From Escherichia coli (GTDB lineage Bacteria > Pseudomonadota > Gammaproteobacteria > Enterobacterales > Enterobacteriaceae), in NCBI RefSeq assembly GCF_050920415.1, contig NZ_CP169309.1: a stretch of 64,000 nt of DNA. One strand, written 5' to 3'. Position numbers and translations under genes: made by a program. The notes under the pieces were generated by a model, which had not been told where the DNA came from, made no database searches, and saw nothing but the letters and a program-made list of their open reading frames with translations. Below, one piece after another: positions 13,089 through 47,518 of this stretch (its first letter is position 1; every line of letters begins with the position of its first letter).

Positions 13089-14423
13089 ATGAATAATGAC
13101 AATACCGATTACGTGAGTAATGAATCAGGGACGCTTTCGCGATTATTTAAACTACCTCAGCATGGGACCACCGTCCGCACAGAATTGATTGCGGGGATGA
13201 CCACTTTTTTAACCATGGTGTACATCGTTTTTGTGAACCCGCAAATCCTCGGCGCGGCACAAATGGACCCGAAAGTGGTGTTTGTTACCACCTGTTTGAT
13301 TGCCGGTATCGGCAGTATTGCGATGGGGATATTTGCTAACTTACCCGTGGCGCTGGCTCCGGCAATGGGGCTGAACGCCTTCTTTGCGTTCGTTGTCGTG
13401 GGGGCGATGGGCATCTCCTGGCAGACCGGGATGGGCGCAATATTCTGGGGCGCAATTGGGCTATTTTTGCTCACGCTGTTTCGCATCCGGTACTGGATGA
13501 TCTCCAACATTCCATTAAGTTTACGTATTGGTATCACTAGCGGAATCGGATTATTTATCGCCTTAATGGGGTTAAAAAATACTGGTGTTATTGTCGCCAA
13601 TAAAGACACCCTGGTGATGATTGGTGATTTAAGTTCTCACGGTGTGTTGTTAGGTATATTAGGGTTTTTTATTATAACCGTGTTGTCATCTCGTCATTTT
13701 CATGCCGCGGTGCTGGTCTCTATTGTGGTGACGTCTTGCTGTGGATTATTTTTCGGTGATGTTCATTTTAGCGGCGTCTATTCCATTCCGCCTGATATTA
13801 GCGGCGTCATTGGTGAAGTGGATTTGAGTGGCGCATTATCACTTGAACTCGCTGGTATCATTTTCTCCTTTATGCTGATCAACCTATTTGATTCATCAGG
13901 AACATTAATCGGTGTGACTGATAAAGCTGGCTTAATAGATAGTAACGGTAAATTCCCTAATATGAATAAGGCGCTGTATGTTGATAGCGTCAGTTCGGTG
14001 GCGGGCGCGTTTATCGGCACCTCGTCTGTTACCGCCTATATTGAAAGTACTTCTGGTGTGGCAGTTGGTGGTCGAACGGGGCTGACTGCGGTCGTGGTCG
14101 GCATTATGTTTCTGTTGGTTATGTTTTTCTCGCCGCTGGTGGCAATGGTCCCTCCTTACGCCACCGCCGGAGCGTTAATCTTTGTTGGCGTGCTGATGAC
14201 CTCAAGCCTGGCGCGCGTTAACTGGGATGATTTTACCGAATCAGTACCTGCATTTATTACTACGGTGATGATGCCCTTTACTTTCTCGATCACCGAAGGG
14301 ATTGCGCTTGGCTTTATGTCGTACTGCATCATGAAGGTGTGCACCGGGCGCTGGCGCGATCTGAACCTGTGTGTGGTGGTGGTTGCAGCTCTGTTTGCTC
14401 TGAAGATTATTTTGGTGGATTAG
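13089..14423 (+). CDS. adeQ: Adenine permease (NCS2/AzgA-like purine transporter); native start probably MNNDNTDY (track ORF starts at 13011)
   Basis: Polytopic membrane protein divergent from ade; synteny with K-12 yicO. Confidence 0.88.
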   Translation: MNNDNTDYVSNESGTLSRLFKLPQHGTTVRTELIAGMTTFLTMVYIVFVNPQILGAAQMDPKVVFVTTCLIAGIGSIAMGIFANLPVALAPAMGLNAFFAFVVVGAMGISWQTGMGAIFWGAIGLFLLTLFRIRYWMISNIPLSLRIGITSGIGLFIALMGLKNTGVIVANKDTLVMIGDLSSHGVLLGILGFFIITVLSSRHFHAAVLVSIVVTSCCGLFFGDVHFSGVYSIPPDISGVIGEVDLSGALSLELAGIIFSFMLINLFDSSGTLIGVTDKAGLIDSNGKFPNMNKALYVDSVSSVAGAFIGTSSVTAYIESTSGVAVGGRTGLTAVVVGIMFLLVMFFSPLVAMVPPYATAGALIFVGVLMTSSLARVNWDDFTESVPAFITTVMMPFTFSITEGIALGFMSYCIMKVCTGRWRDLNLCVVVVAALFALKIILVD

Positions 14424-14475
14424 TAACTGGCGAGGGTTTCCAGATATCATGAGTTCTGATTACGCAGGAGAACTC

Positions 14476-14928
14476 ATGATCTGGATAATGCTCGCTACGC
14501 TGGCGGTGGTGTTTGTAATTGGTTTTCGGGTGCTGACATCCGGGGCCAGAAAGGCGATTCGCCGTCTCAGCGATCGGCTGAATATTGATGTCGTACCCGT
14601 GGAGTCGATGGTCGATCAAATGGGAAAGTCAGCCGGTGAGGAATTTTTACGTTATTTGCATCGCCCGGATGAGTCGCACCTGCAAAACGCCGCGCAGGTG
14701 TTGCTCATCTGGCAAATTGTCATTGTCGATGGAAGCGAACAGAACCTGCTGCAATGGCATCGGATTTTACAAAAAGCTCGCCTCGCCGCGCCGATTACCG
14801 ATGCTCAGGTCAGGCTGGCGCTGGGTTTTCTGCGCGAAACCGAACCTGAAATGCAGGATATTAATGCTTTTCAGATGCGCTATAACGCATTCTTTCAGCC
14901 TGCTGAGGGCGTTCACTGGCTGCATTAA
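14476..14928 (+). CDS. yicN: DUF1198-family small membrane-anchored protein YicN (track ORF starts at 14449)
   Basis: 150-aa ORF downstream of adeQ; synteny. Confidence 0.8.
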   Translation: MIWIMLATLAVVFVIGFRVLTSGARKAIRRLSDRLNIDVVPVESMVDQMGKSAGEEFLRYLHRPDESHLQNAAQVLLIWQIVIVDGSEQNLLQWHRILQKARLAAPITDAQVRLALGFLRETEPEMQDINAFQMRYNAFFQPAEGVHWLH

Positions 14929-14959
14929 AACCGTTTCGTCTTATTAGCCTACAGACCGC

Positions 14960-15010
14960 GCCTGAGCTGGTGGGTGGATAAGGCGTGCACGCCGCATCCG
15001 GCATCGGAAC
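14960..15010. repeat. REP (repetitive extragenic palindrome) element
   Basis: ggataaggcgtgcacgccgcatccggca matches E. coli REP consensus. Confidence 0.7.
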
Positions 15011-15043
15011 TGACAGTAGGTGAACGCATTATCTACGTTCTAT

Positions 15044-15367
15044 TTACAGCAGCACCTCCAGCCCGTGTTTTTGCACAATGCTGAGCAGTTTTAATGAAAT
15101 GCCATTGGGGCGTTTAGCGCCACTTTCCCATTTTTGTACAGTTGAAACGCTGGTATTGAGATAGTGAGCGAAGACGGGCTGACTCACTTTTAATTTTTCC
15201 CGCAGTGCTTTTATCTCAACAGGTTGTAAGTCTTGCACGCTGGTCAGGCAGGCTTTGTCAAAAGTACGCATCGTTTCGGCAGAAATAGCATCGACGCTGG
15301 ACAATCCAGCAGCTGCGCTGTGAATAGCCTCAAATGCAGGACTTTTAAATTTAGTTTTTGCAGTCAT
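15044..15367 (-). CDS. HTH (XRE-like) antitoxin, HigA-2-like; downstream partner of the toxin gene
   Basis: 107-aa ORF with C-terminal helix-turn-helix (VSQPVFAHYLNTSVSTVQKWESG), overlaps toxin ORF by 17 nt. Confidence 0.7.
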   Translation of the reverse strand: MTAKTKFKSPAFEAIHSAAAGLSSVDAISAETMRTFDKACLTSVQDLQPVEIKALREKLKVSQPVFAHYLNTSVSTVQKWESGAKRPNGISLKLLSIVQKHGLEVLL

Positions 15368-15710
15368 AGCAGATCTCTGTCAGTTCTTTAGTGTTAATCA
15401 TTGCTGTTAGTTGGGCTTTCGTCAGGAAGGCATAATGCTTTGCAAGTTCACGAAACCCAGCCAGTTCCTGACTATTGATGTTCGACATATCCTGTTTTGC
15501 ATATAAAAACGTGTAAAACCAATTGCTTCCCCCTTTTGCCAGAATAATTGCACGCTCACGATTTTGGTGAAGGCGCTTTTTAAAAACGCCACCACCAAGT
15601 GCATCAGCTTTACCTTGCTCCGTTTCTAAAATGGCCCGGCACAACTCTTCATCTGTTATTGCATGAGACCTGGCTTCCCTTGCAAACCATTTGGTTTTAA
15701 ACACGCGCAT
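15351..15710 (-). CDS. RelE/ParE-superfamily toxin, HigB-2-like (toxin-first gene order)
   Basis: 119-aa ORF; pattern GGG..KKR...RERAIILAKGG.NWFYTFLYAKQD resembles HigB-2-type toxins; paired with HTH antitoxin. Confidence 0.65.
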   Translation of the reverse strand: MRVFKTKWFAREARSHAITDEELCRAILETEQGKADALGGGVFKKRLHQNRERAIILAKGGSNWFYTFLYAKQDMSNINSQELAGFRELAKHYAFLTKAQLTAMINTKELTEICYDCKN

Positions 15711-15937
15711 ATCGTTGAGGTCCTGTTATTAAAGTATATCACCAAGTGCAATACTTTATCCCTTATTCCTAACCCAATCGCGAAAATGCATATCAGCTTG
15801 CCCTATGATTTTTATTTCTTCGAGCAGCCTCGAACTTTTCCCACAACACCGTAAAAGTTGCAAAAACGTTAAATGTGTCACACATTTCAGTGTTAAAGTG
15901 GTCGGCTTTTCCGTTGAAACATGCCACGGGTAACACC

Positions 15938-17122
15938 ATGAGTGAATTTATTGCCGAAAACCGCGGCGCGGATGCCATCATCCGACCGAACTGGTCCGCC
16001 GTTTTCTCGGTAGCGTTTTGCGTCGCCTGCCTGATTATCGTTGAGTTTTTGCCCGTCAGTTTGTTGACGCCAATGGCCCAGGATTTAGGTATTTCGGAAG
16101 GGGTTGCCGGGCAATCGGTGACCGTGACCGCCTTTGTGGCAATGTTTGCCAGTTTGTTTATTACCCAGACAATTCAGGCCACTGACCGCCGCTACGTTGT
16201 TATTTTGTTTGCCGTTTTGCTGACGCTCTCCTGCTTGCTGGTTTCCTTTGCCAACTCATTCAGTTTGCTTTTAATCGGTCGTGCCTGTCTGGGGTTGGCA
16301 CTCGGCGGGTTCTGGGCGATGTCGGCGTCGCTGACCATGCGTCTGGTACCAGCGCGTACGGTGCCGAAGGCGCTGTCGGTGATTTTCGGCGCGGTTTCTA
16401 TTGCGCTGGTGATAGCCGCACCGTTGGGTAGCTTTTTAGGTGAGCTTATCGGTTGGCGCAATGTCTTTAATGCGGCGGCGGTGATGGGCGTGCTGTGTAT
16501 TATCTGGATTATCAAATCATTGCCTTCGCTGCCTAGCGAACCCTCGCATCAGAAGCAAAATACTTTCCGCTTATTACAGCGTCCGGGCGTGATGGCCGGG
16601 ATGATCGCCATCTTCATGTCTTTCGCCGGGCAGTTTGCTTTCTTCACGTATATTCGTCCAGTGTATATGAATCTCGCAGGATTCGGCGTGGATGGCTTAA
16701 CGCTGGTGCTGTTGAGTTTTGGTATCGCCAGCTTTATCGGCACGTCGCTTTCGTCGTTCATTCTTAAACATTCGGTAAAACTGGCCTTAGCAGGTGCGCC
16801 GTTAATACTGGCTCTGAGTGCGTTGGTGCTGACGTTGTGGGGAAGCGATAAAATCGTGGCGACCGGCGTTGCGATTATCTGGGGGCTGACTTTTGCTTTA
16901 ATTCCCGTTGGCTGGTCAACGTGGATCACTCGCTCACTGGCCGATCAGGCAGAAAAAGCCGGGTCTATTCAAGTGGCGGTTATTCAGCTTGCTAATACTT
17001 GTGGCGCAGCAATCGGCGGTTATGCGTTGGATAATATTGGTCTGACTTCGCCGCTGATGTTGTCCGGCACATTGATGTTGCTTACCGCGCTGTTAGTCAC
17101 CGCAAAGGTGAAAATGAAGTAA
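15938..17122 (+). CDS. nepI: Purine ribonucleoside efflux pump NepI (MFS); track ORF starts at 15875
   Basis: 12-TM MFS protein starting [13 protein letters not shown]; synteny with K-12 yicM. Confidence 0.9.
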
Positions 17123-17324: not shown

Positions 17325-20300
17325 ATGGCAGGGAAAGCGCATGGGAATGGCGATCGTCGGGGCGATAAAACCATATGTGGATTGGGGGATCGTTTACGTC
17401 GTCTGACCGCCGGTATTTGCCTGATAACACAAACTATTTTCCCTGTTATGGCTGCTGCCCCTACGCATGTTAACCCTGCGCATTCGGATACTGCCGCGTC
17501 ACTGATCCTGTCGAACGTTAAAACTATTCCATACACCTTGGGGGCGTTGGAATCGCCACCAACGGTCGCGGCACGCTTTGGTATTACCGTTGATGAATTA
17601 CGTCGCCTGAATCAGTTCCGTACCTTTGCGCGGGGCTTTGACAATGTGCGTCAGGGCGATGAGATAGATGTACCACTCATCAACAGTAACAGCCCTGAAG
17701 CGCGCACTCTGAAAGCAATGCAGATGGAGCGCGACGGTAAAGATCCACAAATGCAGGTCGCGGAAGTGGCGCAACAAAGTGGGACACTTTTAGCGCGCGA
17801 TATGGACAGCGAACAGGCTGCGAGTATGGCGCGTGGCTGGGTGGCTTCTTCTGTGTCTGCGCAGGCGACAGACTGGCTCAGCCGCTGGGGAACTGCCCGG
17901 GTATCTCTGGGTGTTGATGAAGATTTCAGCCTTAAAAGCTCTTCATTTGAATTTCTCCATCCCTGGTACGAAACGCCAGATAACCTGGTCTTCAGCCAGC
18001 ACACACTTCACCGTACGGATGATCGCACTCAAACCAACCACGGTATCGGCTGGCGTTATTTCACATCGAGCTGGATGTCTGGCGTCAATATGTTTATCGA
18101 TCATGACCTGACCCGCTATCACACCCGAACCGGGATGGGCGTTGAATACTGGCGCGATTACCTGAAACTGAGCGGCAACGGTTATCTGCGCCTCAGTAAC
18201 TGGCGTAGTGCACCGGAACTGGACAATGATTATGAAGCACGCCCGGCGAACGGTTGGGATCTTCGCGCCGAAGGCTGGTTACCGGCCTGGCCGCAGTTGG
18301 GTGGTAAGTTAGTCTATGAACAATATTACGGCGATGAAGTGGCGCTATTTGGTAAAGATGAGCGACAAAATGATCCTCACGCGATTACCGCAGGATTGAG
18401 TTACACCCCCGTTCCCCTGATCTCCTTTAGTGCCGAGCAACGGCAGGGCAAACAGGGAGAAAACGACACCCGAATTGGTATGGAGTTGACGTTGCAACCC
18501 GGTCATTCACTGCAAAAACAGCTCGATCCGGCTGAAGTTGCAGCACGACGCAGCCTTGCGGGCAGTCGCTATGACCTGGTCGATCGTAATAGCAATATTG
18601 TCCTCGAATATCGCAAGAAAGAGCTGGTGCGGTTGACGCTGACCGATCCGCTGAAAGGCAAGCCGGGCGAGGTTAAATCGCTGGTTTCTTCCTTACAAAC
18701 CAAATACGCGCTGAAAGGTTATGACATCGAAGCCGCCGCCCTGCAATCAGCGGGCGGAAAAGTTGCTGTTTCCGGCAAGGATATTCAGGTCACCATTCCT
18801 CCCTACCGATTCACGGCAATGCCTGAAACCGACAACACTTACCCGATAGCGGTTACAGCGGAAGATTCGAAAGGAAATTTCTCCCGGCGTGAAGAAAGTA
18901 TGGTGGTTGTAGAAAAACCCACACTAAGCCTCGCTGATTCAACGCTTTCTGTCGATCTACAAATTCTGCTTGCGGATGGAAAATCAATCTCAACGCTGAC
19001 CTATACCGCGCGAGATTCCAGCGGCAAGCCTATCCCGGGTATGACATTAAAAACCCATGCGAAAGGTTTGCAAGATTTCGCCCTAAGCGAATGGAAAGAC
19101 AACGGTAACGGAACCTATACCCAGTTAGTTACCTCCGGGAAGACGTCAGGCGCGTTGTCGCTGATGCCACAATTTAACGGCGACGATGTTGCTAAAACAC
19201 CAGCGCTGATTGCCATTGTGGCTAATATGGCATCCCGAGCGGACTCCATGATTGAAACAGACCAGAATAATTACGTCGCGGGTAAGCCGATAGGCGTAAA
19301 AGTGACCCTGAAAGATGAGAATGGCAACGGGGTTACCGGAAGAAAAGAACTTCTTAAACAGGCTGTTAAAGTAGACAACACGAAGACTGATGCTGTTAGT
19401 GCCTGGACGGAAGAAAGTGAGGGAGTTTACAAAGCAAACTATACGGCCCATCTCATTGGCGACAAATTAACGGCCCAGCTGACGATGCCCGGCTGGCAAA
19501 CCAAGCATTCGGATGCGTTCAGTATTGCGGGTGATAAAGATACCGCCAAAATCGCTGCGATGCAGATCACCGCGAATAACGCAGTCGCCAGACGCGATCA
19601 CAATACCGTCGCTGTGACGGTCAGGGACGTGCATCAAAATTTACTGCAGGGACAAAATGTTACCTTCACGGTCGTGAATGGTGCGGCGGTTTTTGCCGAT
19701 CCAAATGGCGGTATTGTGACGACAGATAAAGACGGGATTGCCAGCGTTAACCTTGCCAGTGACCAGGCGGTAAACAGTCTTATCAAGGCCGAGATCAATG
19801 GCAGTAGTCAGTCTGTGGAAGTGAGCTTTATCACTGGCGATATCTCGCAGCTAACCTCCACCATCAAGACGGACGATGTGTCATACACCGCGGGTGGCAA
19901 GATAAAAGTGTCAGTTACCCTTATGGATGAGCAGAAAAACCTGGTGAAAGGGATGGCTTCGCTGCTGGCGGGTAGCGGTGTGGTCGAGGTGAGCGGTACA
20001 GATAAAAATGAAACGGGTAACTGGAGCGAAGAGTCTGATGGCGTTTACACCACCACCCGAACCGCGAAGATTGCTGGCAATAGCCATTACGCCACGCTGA
20101 AACTATCGACATGGAGTAGCGCGCAGCAATCCGATGCGTATGTCATCCGCGAAAGCGGAGCTGTGCTGGCTTATTCCTCTATCGTTACCGACAAAACGAC
20201 CTATACCGCAGGCGGTGCGATTAAAGTTACGGTAACGCTCAAGGATAGCTATGAAAACCTGGTCGGGGGGCAACGAGACGCTATCAGCCAGGTTATCCAG

Positions 20301-38612: not shown

Positions 38613-38904
38613 GCGCCTCGATTGCTACATGGAGGCGGGGCGCATTATAGCTACTTCCTTGAGTTTCTACATCCCCCAGATCAGTTTTTTCCGCCTAATA
38701 CATTCAGCGTATTATCACGAAAACATTATAGTTCATATAAAACCCATACTTTACAATGATATATGAGCGTAATTTACGCTACCACGATCACATAAAACAA
38801 GAATCATAAATTAATAACCAGATATCGGAATATTCGCTCTCACAGGGATGGTTTACAAAATGCGTTATCGGTCTCAGCACCCCTATAGCATCAAGGAAAA
38901 GCAG

Positions 38905-47483: not shown

Positions 47484-47518
47484 AGGACGGATAAGGCGTT
47501 CACGCCGCATCCTACAGG
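47484..47518. repeat. REP element between gltS and recG
   Basis: ggacggataaggcgttcacgccgcatcc matches REP consensus. Confidence 0.7.

Follow-up and report, generated by a model that had tools for sequence, protein, structure and literature searches.

In this work we have analysed two small overlapping genes which lie between yicN and nepI in a 64,000-nucleotide stretch of Escherichia coli DNA (contig NZ_CP169309.1 of assembly GCF_050920415.1; hereafter the window). [quoted passage not shown] According to this model, a single transcript would arise from a promoter of the extended -10 type, which lies some 25 nt before the toxin ATG, with the toxin encoded first, and the 17-nt overlap between the genes suggests that translation of the antitoxin is coupled to that of the toxin. 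By homology, the toxin would adopt a RelE fold, enter the ribosomal A site and cut mRNA which is being translated. The antitoxin is probably a dimeric XRE-HTH repressor whose N-terminal ~45 residues would wrap around the toxin and block its access to the ribosome; alone or together with the toxin, it would also bind an inverted repeat over the -10 element and so shut off the operon. The module appears to have long resided between nepI and yicN in Enterobacteriaceae, and one deletion ending at a REP element may have produced the empty allele which is now carried by the majority of E. coli, including K-12 and B. The module is already known in kind and its toxin is already annotated by RefSeq. 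It adds one to the type II toxin-antitoxin modules which vary between strains of E. coli, with little significance beyond bookkeeping, and a search of the searchable literature found no experimental study of the nepI/yicN toxin-antitoxin locus in E. coli.

The listing of open reading frames places both genes on the minus strand, with the toxin gene (15351–15710, 119 aa) upstream of the antitoxin gene (15044–15367, 107 aa) and 17 nt in common, exactly as an earlier interpretation of this DNA, the sequence-only reading, had described them. Both frames are far beyond chance, and the 119/107-aa layout with its 17-nt overlap was constant across all eight Enterobacterales loci that we compared. The ATG of the toxin at 15710 corresponds to the start in homologs from other genera (MRVFKTKWF...); RefSeq places the start at a GTG at 15704, two codons further downstream, which gives a protein of 117 aa. 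In the RefSeq genome of E. coli N96, whose sequence is identical here, the two products are annotated as a "type II toxin-antitoxin system RelE/ParE family toxin" and a "helix-turn-helix domain-containing protein", and the pair is flanked by yicN and nepI. Both reading frames of the window allele are intact, with ATG, Shine-Dalgarno sequence and every invariant residue of the family, and both genes are under purifying selection (dN/dS 0.03–0.26, and 0.06–0.26 within E. coli).

The toxin matched the Pfam family PF06296 ("RelE") over residues 1–113, against positions 1–120 of the 120 in the model (E 9.8e-42, 142 bits), and PF06296 was present in all 120 listed toxin homologs. No other family appeared in the Pfam scan, in which matches with independent E values up to 10 were listed; in particular, we did not detect PF05015 (the Rts1-type HigB), PF09907 (the K-12 HigB and SehA type) or PF05016 (ParE and K-12 RelE), and among the NCBIfam models none matching the toxin was found. 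V. cholerae HigB-2 (VcHigB2) also falls in PF06296 in our Pfam comparison and is assigned to it in PMC11980606. The HMM search which the sequence-only reading had called for thus upheld its view of a toxin-upstream, Hig-type pair made of a RelE-superfamily toxin and an HTH protein, the antitoxin matching HTH_3 (1.2e-7). Judged by these sequence matches, the family is more exactly HigB-2/HigA-2 (PF06296) and not that of the Rts1 and K-12 HigB toxins, PF05015 and PF09907. Direct similarity to VcHigB2 is too low to carry this assignment: neither a phmmer search of the PDB with the toxin nor a search with a 26-sequence profile of its subfamily gave any match, and hhalign of the toxin against VcHigB2 gave a weak alignment (E 0.013). 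The link to HigB-2 was therefore made through Pfam, the fold search and a Coxiella intermediate. An AF2 model of the toxin (pLDDT 88.7) has the predicted elements E2-6, H7-15, H20-31, E36-39, E42-46, E53-60, E63-71 and H80-94. When it was compared with the PDB by Foldseek, the best ten matches were all VcHigB2, with a probability of 1.00 (0.99 for the tenth) and TM scores of 0.50–0.61. The model predicts a RelE/BECR fold, in which the core is an antiparallel beta-sheet, two helices lie at the N-terminus and a third, at the C-terminus, packs against the sheet.

The active site can be followed along the same route. In a MAFFT alignment, K44, R46, Y70 and K72 of the toxin align with active-site residues of VcHigB2, and BLASTP to Coxiella burnetii ToxP makes R53 the equivalent of R64 and K72 that of ToxP K79; the register of R53 rests on this bridge, that is, on BLASTP combined with the published ToxP/HigB2 alignment (PMC10098735). 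Among 23 homologs R53 and K72 never vary, and R46 is nearly invariant. We propose K44, R46, R53, Y70 and K72 as the putative catalytic residues, which would be the equivalents of all five active-site residues of HigB2. In VcHigB2 itself, R51, R64, Y82 and K84 were established by mutagenesis (PMC5416850), and K49 was added to the active site in PMC10098735.

The antitoxin carries an XRE-type HTH in its C-terminal part, at about residues 46–102. Besides HTH_3, it matched the Pfam family MqsA_antitoxin (1e-5), and a phmmer search of the PDB aligned its residues 46–102 with residues 38–94 of V. cholerae HigA-2 (5jaa_A, 8.3e-10). The same search revealed no detectable similarity between the N-terminal regions of these two proteins. 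The antitoxin stayed under every NCBIfam cut-off (41.1 bits against 61.8 for MqsA TIGR03830, 41.3 against 60 for NadS NF041265 and 29.2 against 110 for YiaG NF007481), and its matches there were confined to the shared HTH region. Its N-terminal region is conserved across genera and with the functional AntitoxP of Coxiella, and in an AF2 model of the toxin fused to the antitoxin, residues ~6–40 of the latter reached a pLDDT of 87–92. We infer that this conserved region (about residues 5–45) binds and neutralises the toxin.

Upstream of the toxin gene we found an inverted repeat at 15730–15758, whose 13-nt arms (15730–15742 and 15746–15758) are 85% complementary and which we regard as the candidate operator. 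Its core at 15737–15751 reads TTGCAC-TTG-GTGATA on the minus strand. This is the E. coli form of a palindrome, TAGCAC-N3-GTGCTA, which precedes the toxin gene in all the Enterobacterales homologs that we examined, 8 loci in 8 genera, and lies over the -10 at syntenic and non-syntenic sites alike; compared with the other genera, each half-site in E. coli departs by one mismatch. A candidate extended -10 element, TGaTATACT, was read by eye at 15733–15741 on the minus strand, where it overlaps the right half of the operator. The corresponding sequences in other genera are TGcTATAcT, TATAGT, TATATT and TACACT. A strict scan of 14900–16000 for sigma-70 -35/-10 promoters and intrinsic terminators found neither. 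The Shine-Dalgarno sequence AGGA (15721–15724, minus strand) precedes the toxin ATG by 10 nt and appears as ACAGGA in the homologous loci. In the footprinted operator of VcHigA2, one inverted repeat extends across the -10 (PMC11006873), and the candidate operator here would share this architecture. Binding studies could start directly from the Enterobacterales consensus TAGCAC-N3-GTGCTA.

Among characterised systems, ToxP/AntitoxP (CBUA0028/CBUA0027) of the C. burnetii plasmid QpH1 comes closest. ToxP is 31% identical to our toxin along the entire length, C-terminal extension included (E 1e-18), and AntitoxP is 55% identical to the antitoxin over residues 5–106, including the N-terminal region (E 7e-37). 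ToxP is toxic and blocks cell-free translation, its antitoxin rescues, AntitoxP binds both the toxin and the promoter, and the change of K79 to E abolished the toxicity of ToxP (PMC10098735). The two systems have the Pfam toxin family and the toxin-first order in common. However, ToxP/AntitoxP is plasmid-borne and has a role in plasmid maintenance, whereas the window pair is chromosomal and lies between core genes; moreover, the beta2-beta3 loop of ToxP is longer and basic (GKGKRGG), that of the window toxin being 6 residues shorter. The second relative is the V. cholerae pair HigB-2/HigA-2 (VCA0468/0469; PDB 5JA8, 5JA9, 5JAA and 8A0X; PMC5416850, PMC11006873), in which the toxin inhibits growth via ribosome-dependent cleavage of mRNA (PMC5416850). 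It shares with the window pair the Pfam family, the best fold match, the toxin-first operon and the C-terminal HTH of the antitoxin. It differs in that VcHigB2 is only about 20% identical to the window toxin, in the VcHigA2 operator (TGTACGC-N5-GCGTACA instead of TAGCAC-N3-GTGCTA) and in being a superintegron cassette, whereas the window pair occupies a fixed site in the core genome. In this family, the structure has been solved for the V. cholerae member and function has been tested for the plasmid member from Coxiella.

Other toxin-first systems are less close. Rts1 HigBA, K-12 HigBA (ygjNM) and SehAB combine a RelE-superfamily toxin with an HTH antitoxin in the same order as the window pair, and it was in the Rts1/K-12 sense that the label HigBA had been used in the sequence-only reading. 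HigB toxins of the Rts1 and K-12 types are placed in PF05015 and PF09907 (PMC11980606, Table 1), and K-12 HigA, with 138 aa, and SehB, with at least 143 aa, are longer than the 107-aa antitoxin of the window. YiaG-type systems resemble the window pair in that a PF06296 toxin is followed by an HTH protein with a HigA2-like HTH, but the window toxin is without the N-terminal extension found there and the antitoxin reaches 29 of the 110 bits required by NF007481. We considered Salmonella SehAB as an ortholog, from which inhibition of RNase III would have followed, and rejected it: SehA is 40% identical to K-12 HigB and has another order of secondary-structure elements, and the length of SehB speaks against it as well. 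In Salmonella, the ortholog is instead the pair which adjoins nepI. Acinetobacter baumannii HigBA2 was likewise set aside as a relative, since it is described among Gp49-domain toxins.

Comparison of the yicN-nepI interval across 5,426 complete E. coli genomes found the pair in 1,716 (about 32%). O157:H7 and ST131 EC958 carry it, and the interval is empty in the K-12-derived NEB10-beta and the B-derived NEBExpress; its absence from K-12, which the sequence-only reading had assumed, is correct and makes K-12 a natural null host in which to test the pair. The variable segment spans 15002–15843, where 842 bp with both genes, the promoter, the operator and, upstream, some 130 bp of spacer stand in place of 43 unrelated bp in the empty alleles. 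All empty E. coli alleles that we examined have one and the same boundary and resume at position 15844 of the window. On the other side is the REP element, which had been noted beside the pair at 14960–15010 and is real: it has an exact REP core consensus at 14976–15002 on the minus strand (0 expected by chance) and forms a hairpin. Since the REP is common to occupied and empty alleles, which are shared through 15001, it is a boundary feature of the indel and not a part of the module. An Rfam search of 14400–16400 returned only sub-threshold matches, namely the REP-derived naRNA4 (14972–15037) and a spurious miRNA.

Could the pair be a mobile cassette which landed beside the REP in some lineages of E. 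coli, the empty state of K-12 being ancestral? The left boundary of the indel coincides with the exact end of the REP, and the family is clearly mobile: homologs occupy unrelated sites in Dickeya and Yersinia, adjoin integrases in Pantoea and Morganella and, in one metagenomic case, lie amid AbiE, Fic and transposase genes, and the family occurs on 183 plasmid records. In this strain the toxin-antitoxin genes diverge from those of other E. coli by 0.3–2.0%, against 3.3–4.5% for the flanking genes. The toxin tree also conflicts with the species tree (C. koseri and Dickeya toxins are 82% identical, those of C. koseri and E. coli 72%), and for this reason a strictly vertical history is not established. 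Nevertheless, we consider a recent insertion unlikely. The pair lies in the same orientation between nepI and yicN in Citrobacter koseri and Klebsiella oxytoca and, with orientation unchanged, adjoins nepI in Salmonella enterica, so that four genera including Escherichia have the same site and the same arrangement, in which the promoters of the toxin gene and of nepI face each other. The 842 bp contain no recombinase, transposase, terminal inverted repeats or target duplication, and the identity of the antitoxin to that of C. koseri (85%) is near that of its neighbours nepI (87%) and yicN (83%). Synteny in other genera together with a single shared empty boundary makes one loss more parsimonious than insertion, and it is more likely that K-12-type alleles lost the pair than that the others gained it recently. 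The yicN-nepI location given in the sequence-only reading agrees with the RefSeq flanks in N96, while its description of the pair as inserted is not supported as it stands by the nepI-adjacent pairs of three other genera, and the notion of an insertion linked to the neighbouring island has to be corrected. When the 43 bp were compared with the 842 bp for a deletion scar, no significant collinear similarity emerged: the score over the whole segment was matched by 17 of 500 shuffles, its best place being non-collinear, and that near the junction by 935 of 1000. Occupied and empty alleles may serve as markers of an old haplotype split at nepI.

It might be argued that the copies which remain in E. 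coli are decaying remnants, no longer toxic or regulated. In O157:H7 the ATG of the toxin is changed to ATA and the protein also carries G61V, both half-sites of the E. coli operator are degenerate, no other toxin in the enterobacterial set is as divergent as that of E. coli, and two thirds of the genomes have lost the module. This is improbable for the window allele, with its intact frames, start codon, Shine-Dalgarno sequence and family residues, with the low dN/dS within E. coli, and with an antitoxin which is identical or nearly so between distant E. coli strains.

A role in phage defence had been raised as a speculation in the sequence-only reading. In such a role, the toxin would be freed on infection and halt translation before the cycle of the phage is complete, leading to abortive infection, which would be compatible with the toxin-antitoxin operon that we propose. 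RelE/ParE-superfamily modules have been discussed as defence toxins (PMC11980606), AbiEi/AbiEii and Fic genes stand beside the metagenomic homolog mentioned above, and the locus varies between strains. We give this role little credence: PADLOC-DB 2.0 returned 0 families for the toxin and only weak, generic HTH matches for the antitoxin (best RmrA, 5.6e-6, over the HTH), and the E. coli locus is situated among housekeeping genes, outside any defence island. The family was found in no real phage record either, its sole match being a contig from a Salmonella Infantis genome which had been filed under phages.

At its C-terminus the toxin has an extra predicted helix and strand (residues ~97–115) which are conserved (KELVEICHD) and absent from VcHigB2. 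The extension is covered by positions 97–120 of PF06296, of which VcHigB2 matches positions 8–96 only; the helix and strand occur in the window toxin, Coxiella ToxP and the greater part of PF06296 and are missing from the only member of the family with a solved structure. It is conceivable that they redirect the toxin away from ribosome-bound mRNA, as Salmonella SehA, which is without RNase activity, inhibits RNase III through an extra C-terminal helix (PMC12817084). However, SehA belongs to a different family and is without the canonical active-site residues, whereas the window toxin has equivalents of all five in HigB-2, and ToxP, which aligns through the same C-terminal extension, blocks cell-free translation. 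A non-canonical target is in our view very doubtful. We are equally sceptical of the broader idea that the extension brings different regulation or an additional target to the main PF06296 branch, or that the pair holds the nepI-proximal island haplotype together.

Close to the pair lies the nepI-yicS island, with iatC/air, eilA and genes for type III translocators, and the stabilising role which the sequence-only reading had speculated about would make the pair an addiction module, retained because it prevents loss of this island. The co-occurrence is striking, with the pair in 745 of the 747 genomes which have the nepI-iatC junction against 32% overall, yet an addiction module is most improbable here: about 971 genomes, including O157:H7 and ST131 EC958, have the pair without the island, as do three other genera, among them Citrobacter and Klebsiella, where nepI adjoins yicS or other core genes, and deletion of the island would spare the pair, from which it is separated by the core gene nepI, while post-segregational killing needs the two to be lost together. 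The pair is only 1.5 kb away and linkage with shared ancestry alone predicts the association; with this spacing and with so many genomes carrying the pair on its own, tight linkage suffices to explain the co-occurrence.

We found that the toxin gene (119 aa, 15351-15710, minus strand) lies upstream of the antitoxin gene (107 aa, 15044-15367, minus strand), with both on the same strand and overlapping by 17 nt; the ORF list thus has the two overlapping minus-strand ORFs exactly where the sequence-only reading had placed them. The DNA of the pair is 100% identical in the RefSeq E. coli strain N96, where it also stands between yicN and nepI, and its products are annotated there as 'type II toxin-antitoxin system RelE/ParE family toxin' (WP_001521686.1) and 'helix-turn-helix domain-containing protein' (WP_000125643.1). 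The RefSeq/PGAP start of the toxin is GTG 15704, two codons 3' of ATG 15710, which gives 117 aa. We favour ATG 15710 because all toxin homologs from other genera open with MR(V/I)FKT; an AGGA motif lies 10 nt 5' of this ATG. In O157:H7 FWSEC0004 (locus L010, 4254-4262, equal to 15702-15710 of the window) the ATG is changed to ATA, so that the sequence reads IRVFK..., and G61V is present too; this toxin may be translated poorly, or from the GTG two codons on with the loss of the invariant R2. The toxin coding region also contains an inverted repeat (15564-15598, 17-nt arms, 82% complementary, 1-nt loop), which gives rise to a spurious sub-threshold Rfam miRNA match.

To which family does the pair belong? 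In a Pfam scan the toxin matched PF06296 over the entire 120-position model (E 9.8e-42) and no other family, which bears out its proposed place in the RelE/ParE superfamily. According to a 2025 review of this superfamily, HigB-2 of Vibrio cholerae (VcHigB2) belongs to PF06296, the members of which are ribosome-dependent mRNA-cleaving toxins with the toxin gene first (PMC11980606). VcHigB2 itself, as a query identical to PDB 5ja9_C, was found in PF06296 at E 3.3e-8 and over model positions 8-96 only. Direct sequence searches joined the window toxin to no solved structure, and its AlphaFold2 model, built with 26 homologs as input and of good confidence (pLDDT 88.7), had VcHigB2 as each of its ten best fold matches in the PDB (TM 0.50-0.61, about 20% identity, probability 1.00 and still 0.99 for the tenth). 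The model predicts an additional helix (98-106) and strand (110-115) beyond the canonical C-terminal helix; this C-terminal extension (KELVEICHD) is conserved across the toxin family and is lacking in VcHigB2. The antitoxin has an XRE-type HTH (HTH_3, 1.2e-7) and scored under every curated cut-off of the NCBIfam MqsA, NadS and YiaG models; its nearest solved relative is VcHigA-2 (8e-10, residues 46-102 against 38-94). When toxin and antitoxin were joined through a linker in one AlphaFold2 model, the linker was disordered and antitoxin residues ~6-40 formed two helices with a pLDDT of 87-92, higher than that of the HTH domain (69-86), a pattern consistent with packing of the antitoxin N-terminal region on the toxin.

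The closest characterised pair is ToxP/AntitoxP (CBUA0028/0027) of the Coxiella burnetii plasmid QpH1: ToxP is toxic, inhibits cell-free translation and is neutralised by AntitoxP, a protein that binds ToxP as well as the promoter (PMC10098735). Against ToxP the window toxin can be aligned from end to end, C-terminal extension included (31% identity, E 1e-18); the antitoxin and AntitoxP share 55% identity across residues 5-106, a stretch that takes in the N-terminal region (E 7e-37). A tblastn search of plasmids recovered the family from 183 records, of which 19 belong to Coxiella. Mutagenesis has shown that VcHigB2 activity requires R51, R64, Y82 and K84 (PMC5416850), and K49 is also counted among its active-site residues (PMC10098735). 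In a MAFFT alignment K44, R46, Y70 and K72 of the window toxin stand opposite K49, R51, Y82 and K84 and would be their counterparts, R53 appears opposite the R64 equivalent through the ToxP alignment, and in that alignment K72 would correspond to ToxP K79, whose change from K to E abolished toxicity (PMC10098735). Across 23 homologs there is no variation at R53 or K72 and almost none at R46.

A candidate operator, an inverted repeat with 13-nt arms, occupies 15730-15758, between 20 and 48 nt 5' of the toxin ATG. A near-perfect TAGCAC-N3-GTGCTA palindrome precedes each of the homologs compared, from Citrobacter, Salmonella, Klebsiella, Dickeya, Yersinia, Pantoea and Morganella, and since these loci occupy different genomic contexts, the motif can be assigned to the module itself; in E. 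coli it reads TTGCAC-TTG-GTGATA, with a single substitution in each half-site. The right half of the palindrome merges into TGcTATAcT, which we infer to be an extended -10, followed by ACAGGA close to the ATG; a strict -35/-10 scan gave no promoter. The footprinted VcHigA2 operator is likewise a single inverted repeat reaching over the -10, although its sequence and spacing differ (PMC11006873). In those features of membership that can be tested, the pair agrees with the HigB-2/HigA-2 family; the operator and a toxin-neutralising N-terminal segment of the antitoxin are putative further features. It belongs neither to the Rts1 HigB and K-12 HigB families nor to SehAB, so the proposed HigBA-type label holds for a toxin-first RelE-superfamily/HTH pair of the HigB-2/HigA-2 kind (PF06296) and not for the Rts1/K-12 HigB families. 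The pair is already known in kind: automated annotation recognises it, and other members of its family have been studied structurally and functionally. No publication on this E. coli locus came to light in the open-access literature.

The pair occupies this site in 1,716 of 5,426 complete E. coli genomes, including O157:H7 and ST131 EC958, and the remainder match the flanks only, among them B-derived NEBExpress, UTI89 and K-12 NEB10-beta, the last confirming the absence from K-12. The occupied allele has 842 bp (15002-15843) in place of 43 unrelated bp in the empty one. The left edge of the segment is the end of a REP element common to both alleles, which had been noticed earlier and is an exact REP-core match at 14976-15002 (minus strand; 0 expected by chance), and the right boundary is identical in all empty alleles among those listed. 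Another copy of the REP is found at 47489-47515, and the one by the module (14972-15037) gives a sub-threshold Rfam match (33.9 bits, where the gathering score is 59.5) to naRNA4, a REP-derived nucleoid-associated RNA.

Was the pair inserted here, as first worded? It lies between nepI and yicN in C. koseri and K. oxytoca and adjoins nepI in S. enterica, each time oriented as in the window, and this shared site and orientation favours loss. Identity to C. koseri is 85% for the antitoxin and 72% for the toxin; the corresponding values for nepI and yicN are 87% and 83%. Both pair genes are under purifying selection (dN/dS 0.03-0.26). Taking these findings together, we favour the view that the pair is an old resident which was lost once, the empty allele then spreading through recombination. 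This view is tempered by the conflict of the toxin tree with the species tree (C. koseri-Dickeya, 82%), by the mobility of the module at longer range, where it is found beside integrases, on plasmids and in a mobile or defence context, and by the lack of any detectable deletion scar. Between the end of the indel and the nepI start codon lie 94 bp (15844-15937). The promoters of the toxin gene and nepI point away from each other, and the ~90 bp nearest nepI are conserved whether the allele is occupied or empty, as well as in Citrobacter and Salmonella. Compared with other E. coli (11148-17122 against L010 and a second locus, L011), adeD, adeQ, yicN and nepI of this strain differ by 3.3-4.5%, and the 3' half of nepI by 12% from O157:H7, whereas the toxin and antitoxin genes differ by just 0.3-2.0%. 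Only 16 of 5,403 genomes have at least 99% identity over 14449-16100. Although the numbers are small, this suggests that the haplotype around nepI is rare and deeply diverged and that the toxin-antitoxin segment in it was shared more recently.

A role in phage defence, also raised earlier, is conceivable for any type II module, but it found no specific support here, the toxin having no PADLOC match and its family no genuine phage record. Nor do we favour a role in stabilising the neighbouring island (~17 kb, 17545-34041, between nepI and yicS). The island carries the inverse autotransporter adhesin gene iatC/air (9.4 kb, rich in Ig repeats), the gene for the HilA-family regulator EilA, and type III translocator and chaperone genes of the IpaD/SipD, YopB/SseC and SycD families, with yicS beyond; it resembles the eip/eilA/air locus described in enteroaggregative E. 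coli 042. It is confined almost exclusively to the haplotype with the pair, since of the 747 genomes (among 5,426) with the nepI-iatC junction 745 carry the pair. The pair is, however, also present where the island is missing, in about 971 E. coli genomes (1,716 minus 745) and in three other genera, and deletion of the island would leave the pair in place because nepI stands between them; linkage accounts for the association.

Elsewhere in the window, two 'hypothetical protein' genes (160 aa and 479 aa) lie at 3791-5990 between ilvN and uhpA, presumably neighbours in K-12, and may be another small strain-specific insertion. A rhuM gene fragment (38284-38618) directly adjoins tRNA-Sec (selC) and looks like the leftover of an island formerly integrated there.
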